The notes beneath the pieces are model-generated. The model did no database searches. It was given only the letters and a program-made list of their open reading frames with translations, and was not told the origin of the DNA. From positions 51,881 to 115,880 of the forward strand of contig DIEY01000072.1 of NCBI GenBank assembly GCA_002418865.1: 64,000 nt of DNA, given 5' to 3'. The translations under genes and the position numbers were made by a program. Position 1 is the first letter of the stretch; each line of letters opens with the position of its first letter. Source of the stretch: Bacteroidales bacterium UBA5762. GTDB lineage: Bacteria > Bacteroidota > Bacteroidia > Bacteroidales > TTA-H9. This document shows positions 3,858-51,214 of this stretch, piece after piece.

Positions 3858-4964
3858 ATGGATAGCAAGAAGAAAAAATCAGCTACTGCATTGAAGGTGA
3901 ATGAGGGTATAGAACCGCCGCCACCTATCAATGAAGAATTGTTAAAAAGACCATTAAAACAAAAAGATATCCATCCAGCTGAGTATTATGTAGAAGGAAT
4001 TATTGAGGGGAATCGTTCTATTTTATCTCAAGCCATTACTTTGGTCGAAAGCTCGTTAACGACGCATCAGAAACTGGCACAAAAGATTATTGAGAGTTGT
4101 TTGAAAAAATCAGGAAACTCGGTAAGAATAGGAATTACGGGTATTCCTGGAGTAGGAAAGAGTACATTTATAGAAGCATTTGGGAAACAGTTAACTCAAA
4201 TGGGGCATAAGGTGGCTGTTTTGGCCATAGATCCAAGCAGTCAGCGTTCGAAAGGAAGTATCTTGGGTGATAAGACCCGAATGATGAAGTTATCGGCTGA
4301 TCCCAATGCCTATATTAGGCCTTCTCCTTCGGCAGGTTCGCTTGGAGGCGTTGCCCGTAAAACCCGAGAAACGGTTACCTTGTGTGAAGCAGCAGGATTT
4401 GACATTATCATTATCGAAACTGTAGGAGTTGGGCAGTCGGAAACTACAGTTCATTCTATGGTCGATTTTTTCTTGCTATTAATGCTGGCCGGGGCTGGCG
4501 ATGAGCTTCAGGGCATCAAGAGAGGAATAATGGAAATGGCTGATGCTATCGTTATCAACAAGGCAGATGGGGATAATCTCCCGAAAGCTCAACAGGCTAA
4601 AAGTCAATACGAAAGTGCCTTGCATCTTTTCCCACCTAAAACTTCGGGCTGGTCACCCAAAGTCTTACTCTGTTCCTCTATCTATCAAACAGGCATAAGC
4701 CAAATATGGGATATAATGAATGAATATATAGAAATAGTCAAAAATAATGGGTATTTCTGGGAAAACAGAAAACGTCAATCTATTCAACTTATGAACGACA
4801 CACTTCATGAATACTTGCTCGAGTCGTTTTTTTCGAATCCTACTATAGAGAATAAATATCAACAATTACAGAAAAAGGTAATGAATAGTGAGCTTAATCC
4901 TTATAAAGCAGCCCATGAGCTTTTCGATCTTTACTTACACATAATGAGCACTCTGAAAGCATAA
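3858..4964 (+). CDS. meaB: Methylmalonyl-CoA mutase-associated GTPase MeaB/ArgK
   Basis: GIPGVGKST P-loop, AIDPSS, ILGDKTRM, IETVGVGQSE, GDELQGIKRG, INKADG. Confidence 0.95.
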   Translation: MDSKKKKSATALKVNEGIEPPPPINEELLKRPLKQKDIHPAEYYVEGIIEGNRSILSQAITLVESSLTTHQKLAQKIIESCLKKSGNSVRIGITGIPGVGKSTFIEAFGKQLTQMGHKVAVLAIDPSSQRSKGSILGDKTRMMKLSADPNAYIRPSPSAGSLGGVARKTRETVTLCEAAGFDIIIIETVGVGQSETTVHSMVDFFLLLMLAGAGDELQGIKRGIMEMADAIVINKADGDNLPKAQQAKSQYESALHLFPPKTSGWSPKVLLCSSIYQTGISQIWDIMNEYIEIVKNNGYFWENRKRQSIQLMNDTLHEYLLESFFSNPTIENKYQQLQKKVMNSELNPYKAAHELFDLYLHIMSTLKA

Positions 4965-5350: not shown

Positions 5351-6037
5351 TTATTGTAAGGTAAATTTAATAGGCATATTAAATTGTACACGAACGGGTT
5401 TACCTCTTTGGTTACCAGGAATCCATTTTGGCATCATTTTTACGACGCGCACTGCTTCTTCGTCGCATCCTCCGCCTATGCCTCTTATAACTTTTACATT
5501 TGTAATGCTTCCATCGGGTTCTACCACAAAGGTTACATAAACTACACCTTGAATCCCTGATTCGCGGGCTATTTGCGGATACTTAATGTTTTGGAGTAAA
5601 AATTTCATACGTGCCTCTTCACCTCCTGGAAATTCAGGCATTGATTCTACTATTGTAAATATTTCCTGTTCTTCGATTTGTTCATCATCCTTAGAAATGT
5701 TTTGAACTGGAACATATTCTTGAATTACAGTGCTTTGTGTAGCTTCGGCATCAATGGTAAAATCTGTTTCAATGTCAGCATTGTCTTCAACTATATTGAG
5801 AACAGTTACTTGTTGAGGGGGTGGAGGCGGAGTTGGTGGAGTTTCCTGTTTTGTAATTTCTACCATTTCTTCAGGAATATCTAAGGCTTGCCGTTGAAAT
5901 ACTTCAACCGTCTTCTTTTCGTAAGTTTTCCATTCGAAGGCAACCAAAACTAAGGCTAAAGATATTACCAGGCCTATTTCTACAAAGATACCTCTTTTAC
6001 TTTCGAGATCGGCTTTGGATGATTTTTTCTCAATCAT
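5351..6037 (-). CDS. tonB: Energy transducer TonB
   Basis: N-terminal TM anchor, Pro-rich PPTPPPPP linker, TonB_C domain (MPEFPGG, YPQIARESGIQGVVYVTFVVEPDG). Confidence 0.93.
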   Translation of the reverse strand: MIEKKSSKADLESKRGIFVEIGLVISLALVLVAFEWKTYEKKTVEVFQRQALDIPEEMVEITKQETPPTPPPPPQQVTVLNIVEDNADIETDFTIDAEATQSTVIQEYVPVQNISKDDEQIEEQEIFTIVESMPEFPGGEEARMKFLLQNIKYPQIARESGIQGVVYVTFVVEPDGSITNVKVIRGIGGGCDEEAVRVVKMMPKWIPGNQRGKPVRVQFNMPIKFTLQ

Positions 6038-42899: not shown

Positions 42900-42917
42900 T
42901 TGTGAATTATTTCACAG
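42900..42917. promoter_or_regulatory. Rex-like (or CRP/FNR-like) operator TTGTGAA-TTAT-TTCACAG
   Basis: 13/14 defined positions match TTGTGAA-N4-TTCACAA; abuts the -7 box CAAAATTA (42918-42925) of the Fe-S flavoprotein gene. Confidence 0.7.
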
Positions 42918-45199: not shown

Positions 45200-46582
45200 T
45201 CAATGCTCAACCTTTTCGAGTTCAACCGTAAAATGACGCATAATAGGAGCTTCCCATGAAATTCGATATCCATGTTGGATATTCAAACGACGGTCCCAAA
45301 TATTTTTGATTGCAACGGCCACGACGTCCATGTGATTATTAGTGTAAACTCTTCTAGGAATAGCCAATCGAACCGTTTCGAGAGCCGGATAACGGTCCTC
45401 ACGTGTAATAGGATCTCTGTCGGCTAATAAAGTTCCAATTTCTACGGCACGGATTCCGGCTTCAAGGTAGATTTCGATAGCAAGTGTTTGAGCCACATAT
45501 TCTTTACGCGGAACATTAGGCAGAAACTTCAGTGCATCCACAAAAACTGCATGTCCGCCAACAGGTTGTTGTATAGGAATTCCAAAATCGGTGAGTCGTT
45601 TCCCGAGATATTCTACTTGACGTATACGTGTCTCTAAATATTCGAAAGTAGTACTCTCGCGCAGACCTTCTGCCATTGCATTCATATCTCGTCCCGCCAT
45701 GCCTCCATAAGTAATATATCCTTCGAACATGATGTTGAAAGTAGTGGCTTGCCTAAAAATTTCTTCAGAACGAAATCCTATGAATCCACCAATGTTGACA
45801 ATTCCATCTTTTTTACCACTCATAGTAGATAAATCGGCATAAGAATACATTTCGGTAACAATTTCTCGAATCGATTTTTCTTTATATTCTGGCTCACGTA
45901 GTTTGATGAAATAAGCATTTTCTGCAAAACGAGCCGAATCGTAACAAACGGGAATGCCATATTTATTAGCTAAAGCTTTTACTTCACGCAGATTCTGCAT
46001 CGAAACAGGTTGTCCCCCTGAAGTGTTGCAAGTAATAGTCATCAAAATAAAAGGAATATTCTCTTTTGGATTGGATTTTAGCACATCTTCGAGTTTCTGC
46101 AAATCCACATTCCCTTTGAAAGGATGAGAAATACTGGTATCGAAAGCTTCATTTATGCTACAGTCAATAGCTACTGCATGTCGAAACTCAATATGACCTT
46201 TAGTAGTATCGAAAGGCGAATTGCCCGGGATAACGTCACCAGGTTTAACCAGGGCCGAAAATAAAACGTTCTCTGCAGCGCGCCCTTGATGTGTTGGCAG
46301 AAAATATGGGAAACCAAATATTTCATAAATGGCCTGTTTCAGCTTGTAATATGAAGTTGCTCCGGCATAACTTTCATCGCCAAGCATCAGCTCACTCCAC
46401 TGACGGTCACTCATGGCTCCTGTACCAGAATCAGTGATTAAATCAATATACACTTGCTCGCTTTTGAGATTGAATAAATTGTATCTGGCTTGTTTTATCC
46501 ATTCCTCCCTTTGAACCCGCGAGCTCCGATAGATGGGCTCTACCATCTTTATCCGGTAATATTCAGCAAATGGTAATTCCAT
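45200..46582 (-). CDS. tnaA: Tryptophanase (beta-eliminating lyase)
   Basis: IDLITDSGT, PTHQGRAAE, FDTT, SGKKD PLP lysine; C-terminal RHFT has His (tyrosine phenol-lyase has RFFT). Confidence 0.9.
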   Translation of the reverse strand: MELPFAEYYRIKMVEPIYRSSRVQREEWIKQARYNLFNLKSEQVYIDLITDSGTGAMSDRQWSELMLGDESYAGATSYYKLKQAIYEIFGFPYFLPTHQGRAAENVLFSALVKPGDVIPGNSPFDTTKGHIEFRHAVAIDCSINEAFDTSISHPFKGNVDLQKLEDVLKSNPKENIPFILMTITCNTSGGQPVSMQNLREVKALANKYGIPVCYDSARFAENAYFIKLREPEYKEKSIREIVTEMYSYADLSTMSGKKDGIVNIGGFIGFRSEEIFRQATTFNIMFEGYITYGGMAGRDMNAMAEGLRESTTFEYLETRIRQVEYLGKRLTDFGIPIQQPVGGHAVFVDALKFLPNVPRKEYVAQTLAIEIYLEAGIRAVEIGTLLADRDPITREDRYPALETVRLAIPRRVYTNNHMDVVAVAIKNIWDRRLNIQHGYRISWEAPIMRHFTVELEKVEH

Positions 46583-46674
46583 AAAATTAAATTTTAATGA
46601 TGAATTATATTCAATAAGATAGGGATTGAAAATCTATAGAAGTAAGGGGAGGGCAAATTATCTGCCCTAATTAA

Positions 46675-46755
46675 CTAAAGCGAGTAATCGTCGCGGCGCT
46701 TTATATGGCAATATCTGCAAAGTGCTAATAATGAAATCAGCTCAAACCACATCAT
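46675..46755 (-). CDS. Candidate tnaA leader peptide MMWFELISLLALCRYCHIKRRDDYSL (26 aa)
   Basis: Complete ATG..TAG ORF in the tnaA 5' region, one Trp codon, followed by a hairpin; not in the ORF track because of its length. Confidence 0.45.
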   Translation of the reverse strand: MMWFELISLLALCRYCHIKRRDDYSL

Positions 46756-46861
46756 TCAAATTTTCTGTGTAAAATTAAAAGAATTTATATTTTACAGCGC
46801 AAAATTCGAAAAAGAAAATTTTATAACCAACATTCATTTATTTTTCTTATAATTCCCTCTA

Positions 46862-46881
46862 TTTGTTAAATAATTAACAAA
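46862..46881. promoter_or_regulatory. Rex-like operator TTTGTTAA-ATAA-TTAACAAA
   Basis: Perfect 8-bp arms with a 4-nt spacer, overlapping the -33/spacer region of the promoter whose -7 box TACCTTTG is at 46889-46896. Confidence 0.65.
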
Positions 46882-46966
46882 AGCTCATTACCTTTGCTTT
46901 CGGCGGTATTGATCAACCTACTAAATATAGAATATTATAGATTAACATTTTACATTTTTCAAAATA

Positions 46967-48262
46967 ATGCATTCGCGATTTTATAAGATCCTGCCATTTT
47001 TCTTTTTTTTGTTGAGTAGTTTACTATATCCCAATGTCATTTCTGCTCAGTTTGACTCTCTTTTCCTCAATAAGACTCTCCGTTTCGACTATATTCACAT
47101 GGGTGATGCCAATAGTGAATTTTTTGCCATGGATGAATTTCTCGAAGAACCCTATTGGGCAGGCTCACACCTCAACCTAATCGATACCTTAGGTTATGGC
47201 AAATTTCAGTATCGAGTTTATGATCTATCTACTGGTCGTTTGATCTATTCGAGAGGTTATTCTACCTTGTTCTCTGAATGGCAAACTACCCTTGAAGCAC
47301 AAGATGTTTTCAGAGCATTCGAAGAATCCATTGTCATGCCTTTCCCACGTCATGACATCCTCATCGAAATATACAGCTACAATAAAAAGGGGCAATTCGA
47401 AAAAAAAATTTCTTATCCTTTTCGCGTCAACAATTATTTTGTCAATCGAAAGCAGAGAATGGTTTTCCCTGTCATAGAGGTTAGAGAAGTTGCTCCCACA
47501 GAAAAAGCCCTCGATATTGTGATTTTGCCCGAGGGATATACTTCTCAGCAGATGGAAATTTTCAAGCAAGACTGTCAGAAATTTGCGGAAATACTCATAG
47601 GATACGCTCCATACAACGAATACAGCGATAAGATCAACATCAGAGCGGTTTTAGCTCCTTCTCAAGAAGAAGGAAGTGATTTTCCAGCTACCGGTATTTG
47701 GAAAAATACTCTGCTACATTCAAAATTCTATACCTTCGATCTGGATCGTTACTGCATGACCGAAGCCTTTCAAACGGTAAGAGATGTTGCTGCTAATGCC
47801 CCTTACGACCAGATTTATATTCTGGTCAATTCCTCCAGTTACGGCGGTGGTGCAATCTTCAATTATTATGCTCTTTCGGTGAATAGCAACATGTTGGCTG
47901 GAAAAGTCTTTATCCATGAGTTTGGGCATAGTTTTGCCGGATTAGCCGATGAATATTATGATTCTCAGGTGGCTTACAATGAATTTTATCCTTTAGACGT
48001 AGAGCCTCAGGAACCGAATATCACTACTTTAGTAAAGTTCGATAGAAAATGGGCTGATATGGTAGAAGAAGGCGTTCCCATCCCTACCCCAGCCGAAGAA
48101 GATTACAGAAATAAAATTGGAGTTTTCGAAGGAGGTGGCTATGCTGCCAAAGGCATTTATCGCCCAGCCATGGATTGCCTGATGAATACTTTTCATCAGA
48201 ACACCTTTTGCCCGGTTTGCATACGTGCTATCCGACAAATGCTCAATTTTTATACTCAATGA
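46967..48262 (+). CDS. M64 family metallopeptidase (IgA peptidase-like), secreted
   Basis: Signal VISA|Q, KTLRFDY, DIVILPEGYT, HEFGHSFAGLADEY, EGGGY, YRPAMDCLM, FCPVC. Confidence 0.92.
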   Translation: MHSRFYKILPFFFFLLSSLLYPNVISAQFDSLFLNKTLRFDYIHMGDANSEFFAMDEFLEEPYWAGSHLNLIDTLGYGKFQYRVYDLSTGRLIYSRGYSTLFSEWQTTLEAQDVFRAFEESIVMPFPRHDILIEIYSYNKKGQFEKKISYPFRVNNYFVNRKQRMVFPVIEVREVAPTEKALDIVILPEGYTSQQMEIFKQDCQKFAEILIGYAPYNEYSDKINIRAVLAPSQEEGSDFPATGIWKNTLLHSKFYTFDLDRYCMTEAFQTVRDVAANAPYDQIYILVNSSSYGGGAIFNYYALSVNSNMLAGKVFIHEFGHSFAGLADEYYDSQVAYNEFYPLDVEPQEPNITTLVKFDRKWADMVEEGVPIPTPAEEDYRNKIGVFEGGGYAAKGIYRPAMDCLMNTFHQNTFCPVCIRAIRQMLNFYTQ

Positions 48263-48289: not shown

Positions 48290-49192
48290 ATGATTACTCA
48301 TTTAGAACAAATGATCGAAGCTGCAAAGGCTAAAGCCCGTAAAAGAATCGTTGTGGCTTACGCCAACGACATCCATTCCATAGAAGCCGTACACCATACT
48401 ATGGAATTAGGAATTGTAGATGCTACGCTTGTAGGTGACAAAGCTACTATTGTAAAGGTTTGTGAGGATTTGAATATTCAATCCCAGAAATTTCGTATTG
48501 TTCACGAGTCGGATGAGCAAAAAGCAGCTCACAAAGCCGTTGAACTGATCATAAAGGGTGAAGGTGATATTCTGATGAAAGGCCTTGTGAGCTCCGATAA
48601 ATATATGAGAGCCATTCTCAATAAAGATGCAGGTTTATTGCCCCCAAAGGCCATCTTGAGTCATGTAACGGTAATTGAAAACCCAAATTACGACAAACTA
48701 CTAATAGTTGGTGATGTAGCCATTATACCTTCTCCAGACTTAGACCAGAAGATCGCCATCACGAATTACCTGATACAAACCGCTCATCGGCTGGGAAATG
48801 AAAAGCCTAAAGTGGCGATTATTGCCGCAACCGAACAAATGTTACCGAATATGCCCGCATGTGTTGATGCAGCCATCATTTCAAAAATGGGTGAACGCGG
48901 ACAGATTAAAGGAGCCATTATTGACGGCCCTCTTGGACTTGATTCAGCTATCGACAAAGAGAGTGCCACTATAAAAAAAGTAAAGAGTGAAGTGGCCGGT
49001 GATGCCGATTGTCTGCTTTTCCCCAACATCGAAACGGGTAATGTTTTTTATAAATTCAATACTAAACTCGCCAAAGGTGAATTGGGAGCAATCGTTATAG
49101 GAGCCAAATGCCCAGCTATCCTCACCTCAAGAGGCGATAGCGCTCTCTCAAAAACATATTCCATTGCTTTGGCTGCCCTTTCAGCCGACTAA
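48290..49192 (+). CDS. ptb: Phosphate acyl/butyryltransferase, copy 1
   Basis: ILMKG, LSHV, IDGPLGLDSAI, LLFPNIETGNVFYK, LTSRGDS. Confidence 0.9.
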   Translation: MITHLEQMIEAAKAKARKRIVVAYANDIHSIEAVHHTMELGIVDATLVGDKATIVKVCEDLNIQSQKFRIVHESDEQKAAHKAVELIIKGEGDILMKGLVSSDKYMRAILNKDAGLLPPKAILSHVTVIENPNYDKLLIVGDVAIIPSPDLDQKIAITNYLIQTAHRLGNEKPKVAIIAATEQMLPNMPACVDAAIISKMGERGQIKGAIIDGPLGLDSAIDKESATIKKVKSEVAGDADCLLFPNIETGNVFYKFNTKLAKGELGAIVIGAKCPAILTSRGDSALSKTYSIALAALSAD

Positions 49193-49221: not shown

Positions 49222-50133
49222 ATGATCACTAATTTTACACAATTAGTGGATAAAGTAAAAACAGTAACTCCTCAAACCATTGCTGTGGTTGCTGCCGAAG
49301 ATCATGCCACCCTTGGAGCTATTCATCGCGCTATTTCTACGGGTTTCGCAAAGGCTATCCTCTTTGGCAATCAATTAATTATTGAATCTTTGCTTGCTCA
49401 TTATGAAATTCCTGATCATTCCTATACAATTATTCATCAACCCAATGAACAAATAGCGGTAAGTGAAGCCGTTACTATGGTTAATCAAGGTAAAGCTGAT
49501 ATTTTGATGAAAGGCATTATTGGCACTGATATTTTTTTGAAAGCAGTGCTGGATAAAACATCAGGACTATTAAATCAAGGTGAAGTAATGACTTATGTAG
49601 CTGCTATGCAAATACCTACTTATCATAAATTACTCTTCATTTCCGATACGGCGGTCATCCCTTATCCTGACCTCAATCAAAAAGTTGCCATGTTGAAGTA
49701 TTCAGTTGAGATGGCTAAAAGATTTGGCATTTCTAAACCTAAAGTTGCTTTCATTGGAGCCTCTGAAAAAGCTGGGAATCAATCACAAACAGCAATTGAT
49801 GCCAGTATTATAAGCAAAATGGCTCAACGTGGACAACTTGGGGAAGTTATTGTAGATGGCCCACTCGATATTTTTCTGGCTACCCAACCCGAAAGTCTGA
49901 GTATTAAACGAATTAATACCCCCATCGAGGGAGACGCCGATATTTTAATCTTTCCTTCTCTTGAAAGTTGTAATGCCTTTTATAAAGGTTTAGTGAGATT
50001 TGCTGGGGCAGAATTGGCGGGCTTAATACAAGGTACTCGCAAACCTGTAGTTCTGATGTCGAGAAGTGAAAGTGAAAATTCAAAATTTTATTGTCTGGCT
50101 CTCGCATGCCTTATGTCGAATAAAAACCTCTAG
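49222..50133 (+). CDS. ptb: Phosphate acyl/butyryltransferase, copy 2 (divergent)
   Basis: ILMKG, VDGPLDIF, LIFPSLESCNAFYK, LMSRSES. Confidence 0.85.
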   Translation: MITNFTQLVDKVKTVTPQTIAVVAAEDHATLGAIHRAISTGFAKAILFGNQLIIESLLAHYEIPDHSYTIIHQPNEQIAVSEAVTMVNQGKADILMKGIIGTDIFLKAVLDKTSGLLNQGEVMTYVAAMQIPTYHKLLFISDTAVIPYPDLNQKVAMLKYSVEMAKRFGISKPKVAFIGASEKAGNQSQTAIDASIISKMAQRGQLGEVIVDGPLDIFLATQPESLSIKRINTPIEGDADILIFPSLESCNAFYKGLVRFAGAELAGLIQGTRKPVVLMSRSESENSKFYCLALACLMSNKNL

Positions 50134-50137
50134 TATA

Positions 50138-51214
50138 ATGAACAATGAACGTATTCTTGCCATCAATCCAGGCTCAACTTCGACCAAAATAGCCGTATAT
50201 GAAGGAAACAAAAACATCTTTCTGAAAACCATACGTCACACGCCTGAACAATTGCAATGCTGTCGGAAAATTACCGATCAATTTTCTTTTAGAAAAGAAA
50301 TCATTTTGAAAGAATTGAAAGCTGCTGGGATAGATCTAAACAGTATAAAAGTGGTAGTTGGGCGTGGAGGTCTGGTAAAACCTATCCCCAGCGGAGTATA
50401 TGAAGTTAACGCCCGTTTGATAGAAGATTTGAAGGCAGGAGTAATGGGTGAACATGCCAGCAATTTAGGTGGACTTATAGCCGATGAAATTGCTCGATCC
50501 TTAAACAATGCCAAAGCCTATATAGCCGATCCGGTTGTAGTAGATGAATTACAGGATGTTGCACGAATTGCAGGGCATCCTCTCTTCAAAAGATTGTCTA
50601 TTTTTCATGCCTTGAACCAAAAAGCTATAGCTCGATTATATGCTCGATCGCAAAACAAGAATTACGAAGACCTTAACCTTGTGATAGCGCACTTAGGAGG
50701 TGGCATATCAGTTGGAGCTCATCAAAAAGGGAAGGTTATTGATGTAAATAATGCTTTAGATGGAGAAGGGCCTTTTTCCCCTGAACGTAGCGGGACTTTA
50801 CCTGCAGGACAATTGGCAACTTTGTGTTTTAGTGGGCAATATACACTTGAAGAAGTAAAAAAGATGATTACGGGCAATGGTGGGTATATGGCCTATCTGA
50901 ATACCAATAATGCTTATGAAGTTGAAATGGCGGCACGCGAAGGCGATCAAAAGGCTAGTCTTATTCAAGACGCATTGGCTTATCAAGTTGCTAAGGAAAT
51001 TGGAGCTATGGCCACCGTTTTAAAAGGGAATGTCGATGCTATTATTCTTACAGGAGGAATAGCCCACAATACTTACGTGGTTAACTATATCAAAGAAATG
51101 ACAAGCTTTATAGCACCTATTATAGTTTATCCAGGAGAAGACGAAATGAGTGCTTTGGCCATGAATGGACTAATGGTTCTTAGAGGCGAAGGCAAGGTGG
51201 GTATTTATGAATAA
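50138..51214 (+). CDS. buk: Butyrate (branched-chain carboxylate) kinase; start 50138
   Basis: ILAINPGSTSTK, VGRGG, EHASNLG, DPVVVDE, HALNQKA, HLGGGISV, GPFSPER, LTGGIA, YPGEDEM. Confidence 0.96.
   Translation: MNNERILAINPGSTSTKIAVYEGNKNIFLKTIRHTPEQLQCCRKITDQFSFRKEIILKELKAAGIDLNSIKVVVGRGGLVKPIPSGVYEVNARLIEDLKAGVMGEHASNLGGLIADEIARSLNNAKAYIADPVVVDELQDVARIAGHPLFKRLSIFHALNQKAIARLYARSQNKNYEDLNLVIAHLGGGISVGAHQKGKVIDVNNALDGEGPFSPERSGTLPAGQLATLCFSGQYTLEEVKKMITGNGGYMAYLNTNNAYEVEMAAREGDQKASLIQDALAYQVAKEIGAMATVLKGNVDAIILTGGIAHNTYVVNYIKEMTSFIAPIIVYPGEDEMSALAMNGLMVLRGEGKVGIYE

Follow-up and report, generated by a model that had tools for sequence, protein, structure and literature searches.

Rex is the main sensor of the NADH/NAD+ ratio that sets the fermentation balance in Firmicutes. 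A 2012 survey by Ravcheev and colleagues is said to have given its general operator as TTGTGAANNNNTTCACAA in Gram-positive bacteria, Thermotogales, and Thermus, with Bacteroidota reportedly outside the survey. The operator of the Rex/RSP protein of Thermoanaerobacter ethanolicus (PDB entries 3wg9 and 3wgi) is ATTGTTA-N6-TAACAAT. Bacteroidota themselves dominate many guts, digesters, and sediments. No Rex regulon of Bacteroidota is described in the literature searched, where the role of Rex in these organisms is essentially uncharted. The closest described system is that of Clostridium acetobutylicum, in which the ptb promoter is a binding target of Rex and a rex mutant upregulates ptb-buk (PMC5050335), and the Rex motif of the Clostridiaceae is TTGTTAANNNNTTAACAA (PMC9600882). 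Promoters of Bacteroidetes, for their part, carry a -7 element of the form TAnnTTTG and a TTTG near -33 (PMC7366714).

The palindrome and its genomic setting

The site considered here is a palindrome in the window, by which we mean the whole 64-kb stretch of DNA that was analyzed. It lies in a 384-nt gap between a tryptophanase gene on the minus strand and an M64 peptidase gene on the plus strand, and the features of the locus are as follows.

46862..46881: candidate Rex operator, a perfect 8-4-8 palindrome TTTGTTAA-ATAA-TTAACAAA (= TTTGTTAAATAATTAACAAA), with its 18-nt core at 46863-46880
46862..46865, plus strand: -33-like TTTG within the left half-site, assigned from the consensus in PMC7366714
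46889..46896, plus strand: -7 box TACCTTTG (TAnnTTTG) of the M64-ptb-ptb-buk promoter, 8 nt past the end of the core repeat
46800..46807, minus strand: -7-like GAATTTTG, an imperfect, putative tnaA promoter box, 55 nt from the palindrome edge
45200..46582, minus strand: tryptophanase (tnaA), the divergent neighbor (PF01212, 1.1e-84)
46967..48262, plus strand: M64 peptidase, first gene of the operon (PF09471, 1.6e-68; PF16217, 9.9e-41)
48290..49192, plus strand: ptb1, phosphate acyl(butyryl)transferase paralogue 1 (PF01515, 3.4e-48), 27 nt after the M64 gene
49222..50133, plus strand: ptb2, phosphate acyltransferase paralogue 2 (PF01515, 4.9e-40), 38% identical to ptb1
50138..51214, plus strand: butyrate kinase (buk) (TIGR02707, 9.7e-160)

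The two 8-nt arms are perfectly complementary, the ATAA spacer between them is asymmetric, and the 18-nt core matches the clostridial Rex variant (TTGTTAA-N4-TTAACAA) with zero mismatches. The original prediction had described a perfect palindrome that overlaps the -33-like TTTG and the spacer of the promoter and lies 55 nt from a divergent tnaA promoter. The coordinates and arms of the palindrome are exact in the sequence and both geometries hold, the tnaA box being an imperfect, putative one. The TTTG stands 23 nt upstream of the -7 box, a longer spacing than is typical. All eight of the family intergenic regions inspected have a TAnnTTTG box at the equivalent position, and the -33-like TTTG occupies the same place in two relatives (G001 and G004) and sits 1 nt farther from the box in a third (G009). 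The distance from the start of the site to the -7 box is 26 nt. Because the left half of the site contains the -33-like TTTG, the operator would span approximately -38 to -20 relative to the transcription start, which is expected near 46902-46904. On the tnaA side, the -7-like box is conserved as GAnnTTTG in G001, which belongs to the same genus. The tnaA leader of ≈210 nt (46583-46800, minus strand) has a 5' part that is also conserved in G001, and it matches no Rfam family.

Downstream of the palindrome, the genes of the operon are separated by 27, 29, and 4 nt, with ATG 50138 as the buk start, so that M64-ptb-ptb-buk is very likely a single transcript. The longest buk reading frame, from GTG 50066, would share 68 nt with ptb2; ATG 50138, 4 nt past the ptb2 stop codon, is the likelier start because the TIGR02707 alignment begins from residue 29. 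Read by eye, the N terminus of the M64 peptidase looks like a signal peptide, suggesting that the protein is secreted.

Perfect 8-4-8 palindromes of any sequence number four in the window against 2.2 expected. The other three are at 5365 (ATTTAATAGGCATATTAAAT), 37592 (AAATTTGTGATGACAAATTT), and 42804 (CTGAAAAGTTACCTTTTCAG), the last of which falls just within the 5' end of a gene for a 1074-aa oxidoreductase, 96 nt from a second Rex-type site at 42900. Searching the window by itself for the Rex motif with up to two mismatches is uninformative, with one match observed and 1.18 expected. We also considered an intrinsic terminator or structured RNA at the palindrome and rejected it, since the hairpin is weak (-4.2 kcal/mol, with A-U and G-U pairs except for one G-C), a T-run is absent, and the sole Rfam match, SNORD51 (E = 0.76), is far under the gathering score.

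The ptb-operon site in related genomes

We aligned the promoter regions of the ptb operon from relatives of the window's genome, all of them uncultured Bacteroidales MAGs. The site is present in the following genomes, each given with its genus, its half-sites and spacer, and the distance from the start of the site to the -7 box.

G000 (the window), g1: TTGTTAA-ATAA-TTAACAA, 26 nt
G004, g4: TTGTTAT-TCTA-TTAACAA, 26 nt
G008, g4: CTGTTAT-CAGA-TTAACAA, 26 nt
G009, g5: TTGTTAT-TGGA-ATAACAA, 27 nt
G011, g2: TTGTTAT-TAAT-TTCACAA, 25 nt
G002, g2: TAGTTAT-CCGT-TTCACAA, 25 nt

A fixed offset of 25 to 27 nt to the TAnnTTTG box is therefore found in six of the 12 family genomes and in four genera, with half-sites that are conserved, spacers that vary, and the same offset in operons led by M64 and in those led by ptb1. 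In all six the site lies over the -33 region. A broader search of the DNA that precedes 80 ptb1 loci in public genomes (≈220 kb in total) gave eight matches at no more than one mismatch, seven of them at the expected promoter position. Two distant MAGs, L118 and L119 (Tenuifilaceae BF4_52 and a 'Rikenellaceae' MAG), carry TTGTGA(A/T)TTTTCTAACAA ≈1370 nt upstream of ptb1; this site (around 1630) lies 29 nt before a TAGTTTTG box, an offset unlike that of the window's family.

The original prediction had held that a site not conserved in orthologues would count against it. Conservation stands for the six genomes listed and fails in six others. In five of these (G003, G005, G006, G007, and G010), the site is absent from the promoter regions compared, and Rex is kept in all five. 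The sixth is G001, in which an alignment by eye (L032, ≈4085-4110) places TTTGCCGAAAATCAACAAAAGC at the equivalent position, with the left half-site destroyed and the spacing shortened. G001 has a Rex protein 90% identical and a ptb1 product 92% identical to those of the window's genome, and it keeps the -33-like TTTG, the -7 box, and the whole tnaA<>M64-ptb-ptb-buk arrangement. Judged from these sequences, the operator looks ancestral to the family and dispensable, and its loss in a sister species implies rapid rewiring of the regulon. The right half-site and an adjoining AAAGC persist in regions that have lost the left half, and some of this conservation may therefore reflect the promoter.

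The gene order around the site differs among these relatives. G001, G004, and G008 share the divergent tnaA<>M64 arrangement with the window. In G009, a gene of ≈0.7 kb parts tnaA from the site, which remains 27 nt from the M64 -7 box, and in G002 and G011 the site is on the ptb promoter, with M64 and tnaA both unmatched within the 7-kb stretch. Some family members have an extra gene between tnaA and M64 (L035, 2654-3430; intergenic regions of L036, L039, and L040). By eye, this gene is pirin-like, ≈0.7 kb, and on the opposite strand in G005, G009, and G010, and in G003 it encodes a small SMR/SugE-like membrane protein.

These arrangements bear on whether the palindrome is a bidirectional Rex operator that also gates the divergent tnaA, and hence indole, promoter. 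Its position between tnaA and M64, with a -7-like box on the minus strand 55 nt away, would allow this, as would the retention of the divergent arrangement in three relatives. However, the center of the operator is at approximately -78 relative to the predicted tnaA start, outside the core promoter, and this distance, reckoned from the putative and imperfect -7 box at 46807-46800, makes regulation of tnaA from the site unlikely. Moreover, G009 retains the site at the M64 promoter, and G002 and G011 have it at the ptb promoter; because the site follows the M64/ptb promoter in relatives, any control of tnaA would be secondary. We consider such dual control unlikely, and continue with an operator that serves the M64-ptb-ptb-buk promoter.

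The motif across the genome and its co-occurrence with Rex

To place the palindrome in its genomic context, we scanned the 2.8-Mb genome (37.7% GC), of which 406 kb (32.8% GC) is intergenic according to crude ATG-ORF gene calls, and derived expectations analytically from order-0 to order-3 Markov models of the intergenic DNA. The strict motif TTGTTAA-N4-TTAACAA, set beforehand, has three matches, all three intergenic, against 0.016 to 0.024 expected, an over-representation in intergenic DNA of more than 100-fold. The degenerate consensus TTGT[TG]A[AT]N4[AT]T[AC]ACAA, which was set after viewing the data, has six matches, again all intergenic, against 0.17 to 0.20 expected, and in all six the site starts 71 to 129 nt from a start codon. 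Allowing two mismatches to the degenerate motif yields 311 matches (228 coding and 83 intergenic) that are mostly noise and were excluded from the regulon; two symmetric sites among them, C97:7744 and C97:28494, are both at hydrogenase-type clusters. The genome-wide count favors the original prediction, with three strict sites where ≈0.02 would be expected, and the second site that it had placed on a promoter in the same island is present at 42900-42917.

The intergenic matches with no mismatch or a single one precede NAD(H)-linked genes. Besides the ptb operon, the predicted targets are as follows.

42900..42917: second Rex-type site TTGTGAATTATTTCACAG, adjoining the -7 box TAATTTTG of the gene for the 1074-aa fused oxidoreductase (minus strand), a predicted target
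glutamate dehydrogenase (gdh)
nqrA (one mismatch), which opens the Na+-NADH:quinone reductase operon
two NuoE/NuoF-type clusters (hydrogenase-like, of the NuoE/F-HydA type), both preceded by tandem sites
a pyruvate carboxylase B/oxaloacetate decarboxylase alpha-like (PycB/OadA-like) gene
an SDR dehydrogenase

The NAD(H)-linked genes classically assigned to Rex, ptb among them, make up this set. The sites at gdh, nqrA, and the 42900 gene abut the 3' end of the -7 box or overlap it, a position that would cover the start site. These predicted operator positions, like that at the ptb operon, are compatible with a repressor that keeps RNA polymerase off the promoter. The tandem pairs before the two NuoE/NuoF-type clusters (C47:44915-44949 and C97:7744-7778) have starts 17 nt apart, and the symmetric variant at C97:28494, TTGTTAGCGTACTAACAA (TTGTTAG-CGTA-CTAACAA), precedes a third cluster, of a NuoE/NuoF/[FeFe]-hydrogenase-like type, by 76 nt.

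The genome encodes a single Rex of 209 aa, on another contig (G000 C97:15611-16240). In a profile search of the genome it scores 49.3 bits against PF06971, and it scores 206.7 bits against NCBIfam NF003995, 'redox-sensing transcriptional repressor Rex' (cut-off 126), with residues 4-207 aligned. Bacteroides thetaiotaomicron, which served as the control for the PF06971 search, gave a match as well. Comparison with Rex chains in the PDB gives values from 3e-34 to 2e-27, with the Bacillus subtilis protein (2vt2, 3.3e-34) as the best match, and the GxGxxG dinucleotide-binding motif is intact as GVGNLG. The rex gene (L001 326-2115, G000 C97) begins 18 nt after a 380-aa reading frame that, by eye, encodes a fused response-regulator receiver and histidine kinase, and the pair is probably cotranscribed given this short distance. 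A weak Rex-like site, TTAGGAATGAATTCACAA, is found 122 nt upstream of the 380-aa reading frame and could point to Rex autoregulation.

We then compared the distribution of the motif with that of Rex among 41 related genomes, scoring as a Rex orthologue a protein at least 50% identical and grouping the remaining genomes as lacking Rex or having a distant Rex. Strict matches number 32 across the 24 genomes with a Rex orthologue and one across the 16 without, whereas a reversed control pattern occurs four and five times, respectively. A site upstream of nqrA (no more than one mismatch, at -167 to -264) is present in 11 of 20 genomes with Rex and in none of nine without it. Every genome of the window's family (f1) has Rex, which confounds co-occurrence within the family with phylogeny. 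Outside the family, the site is found in eight of 12 genomes with Rex and in one of 16 others; each of these genomes is from a different family, and the comparison is therefore less confounded by phylogeny.

This distribution also weighs on the idea that the palindrome is the operator of some other dimeric factor recognizing a TGT(T/G)A-N6-T(A/C)ACA core, such as a member of the Crp/Fnr family. Crp/Fnr-family proteins bind a TGTGA-N6-TCACA or TTGAT-N4-ATCAA core. The Rex consensus does contain the CRP-like core TGTGA-N6-TCACA, from which the core of the palindrome, TGTTA-N6-TAACA, is two changes away, and Bacteroidota encode many Crp/Fnr-family regulators; co-occurrence inside f1, where all genomes have Rex, says little on the point for the reason given above. 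However, the motif tracks Rex outside f1, the extended TTGTTAA/TTAACAA half-sites and the N4 spacer match those of Rex exactly (PMC9600882), and the targets are the classic NAD(H)-linked ones, including ptb (PMC5050335). A Crp/Fnr-type factor is much less parsimonious than Rex, and we regard it as quite improbable.

That the palindrome arose by chance, or is a weak DNA or RNA hairpin with no regulatory role, is barely credible: bare 8-4-8 palindromes are indeed common in the window, the intergenic DNA has a low GC content, and the closest relative, G001, does without the site, but the specific motif is enriched more than 100-fold, the offset to the -7 box is kept in six genomes with constant half-sites and variable spacers, and the hairpin is weak, without a T-run or an Rfam match above noise, and upstream of both predicted start sites. 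The warning in the original prediction that AT-rich palindromes arise by chance accordingly applies to bare 8-4-8 palindromes (four observed against 2.2) and not to the Rex motif itself (three against 0.016-0.024).

Proposed control by Rex and comparison with known systems

Taken together, these data argue for the palindrome being the operator of the NADH/NAD+-sensing repressor Rex on the M64-ptb-ptb-buk promoter, within a small NAD(H)-linked regulon, a reading to which we assign a probability of roughly 0.8 from sequence evidence. The Rex operator put forward in the original prediction is backed by the presence of a Rex gene, the enrichment of the motif, the nature of the targets, the co-occurrence with Rex, the fixed promoter offset, and the precedent in Clostridium. 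At a low NADH/NAD+ ratio, a Rex dimer would occupy 46863-46880, block the -33 region, and exclude RNA polymerase from what appears to be a sigma-ABfr promoter. Accumulation of NADH would release Rex from the DNA, as expected from the established behavior of the Rex family, and the operon would be expressed. Its output would be a secreted peptidase and a branch that converts acyl-CoA through acyl-phosphate to acid and ATP, and M64-ptb-ptb-buk would be expressed jointly with other NADH-handling genes.

The wider proposal combines several elements: a previously undescribed Rex regulon with a clostridial-type operator in an uncultured Bacteroidales family, an M64 protease and ptb-ptb-buk tied to the NADH/NAD+ ratio, redox gating of proteolysis and amino-acid fermentation, and fast rewiring. 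To this combination as a whole we give even odds. If it is true, redox state would control both the breakdown of protein outside the cell and the fermentation of amino acids. The ptb-buk site and its companions at nqr, gdh, and the hydrogenase-type clusters point to redox control of both the formation of short- and branched-chain fatty acids and a secreted protease. They offer a testable candidate Rex regulon for a Bacteroidales family, and they would define an operator/promoter geometry for sigma-ABfr promoters.

Among characterized systems, the ptb(-buk) operator of C. acetobutylicum resembles the present site most directly: the 18-nt consensus is identical, with T/A rather than G/C at positions 5 and 14, the target is likewise an operon for phosphate butyryltransferase and butyrate kinase, and the regulons overlap in hydrogenase-type genes and NAD(H)-dependent dehydrogenases (PMC9600882, PMC5050335). 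In contrast to C. acetobutylicum, the host here is a Bacteroidales MAG, the promoter is of the sigma-ABfr type with a -7 TAnnTTTG, and the operon is led by a secreted M64 peptidase and contains two ptb paralogues. G and T are also interchangeable at position 5, with W at positions 7 and 12, unlike in Clostridium. The general Rex regulon is similar in its dimeric winged-helix/Rossmann repressor and in the 18-nt inverted repeat over promoters of NADH-reoxidizing and energy genes, and the site at 42900, TTGTGAATTATTTCACAG, is of the general type TTGTGAANNNNTTCACAA. The operator of T. ethanolicus shares the TTGTTA-N6-TAACAA core with free positions 7 and 12, comparable with TTGTTAT...ATAACAA in G009 and at C97:7761. 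That organism differs, however, in being a thermophilic Firmicute with alcohol dehydrogenase targets, and protein similarity is moderate, the Rex of this genome being no closer to Thermoanaerobacter Rex (3wg9, 3.7e-29) than to B. subtilis Rex (2vt2, 3.3e-34). The regulatory principle, Rex acting on ptb-buk through the same operator, is already known from Clostridium. What the present site would add is a Bacteroidota host, and the finding is a modest surprise.
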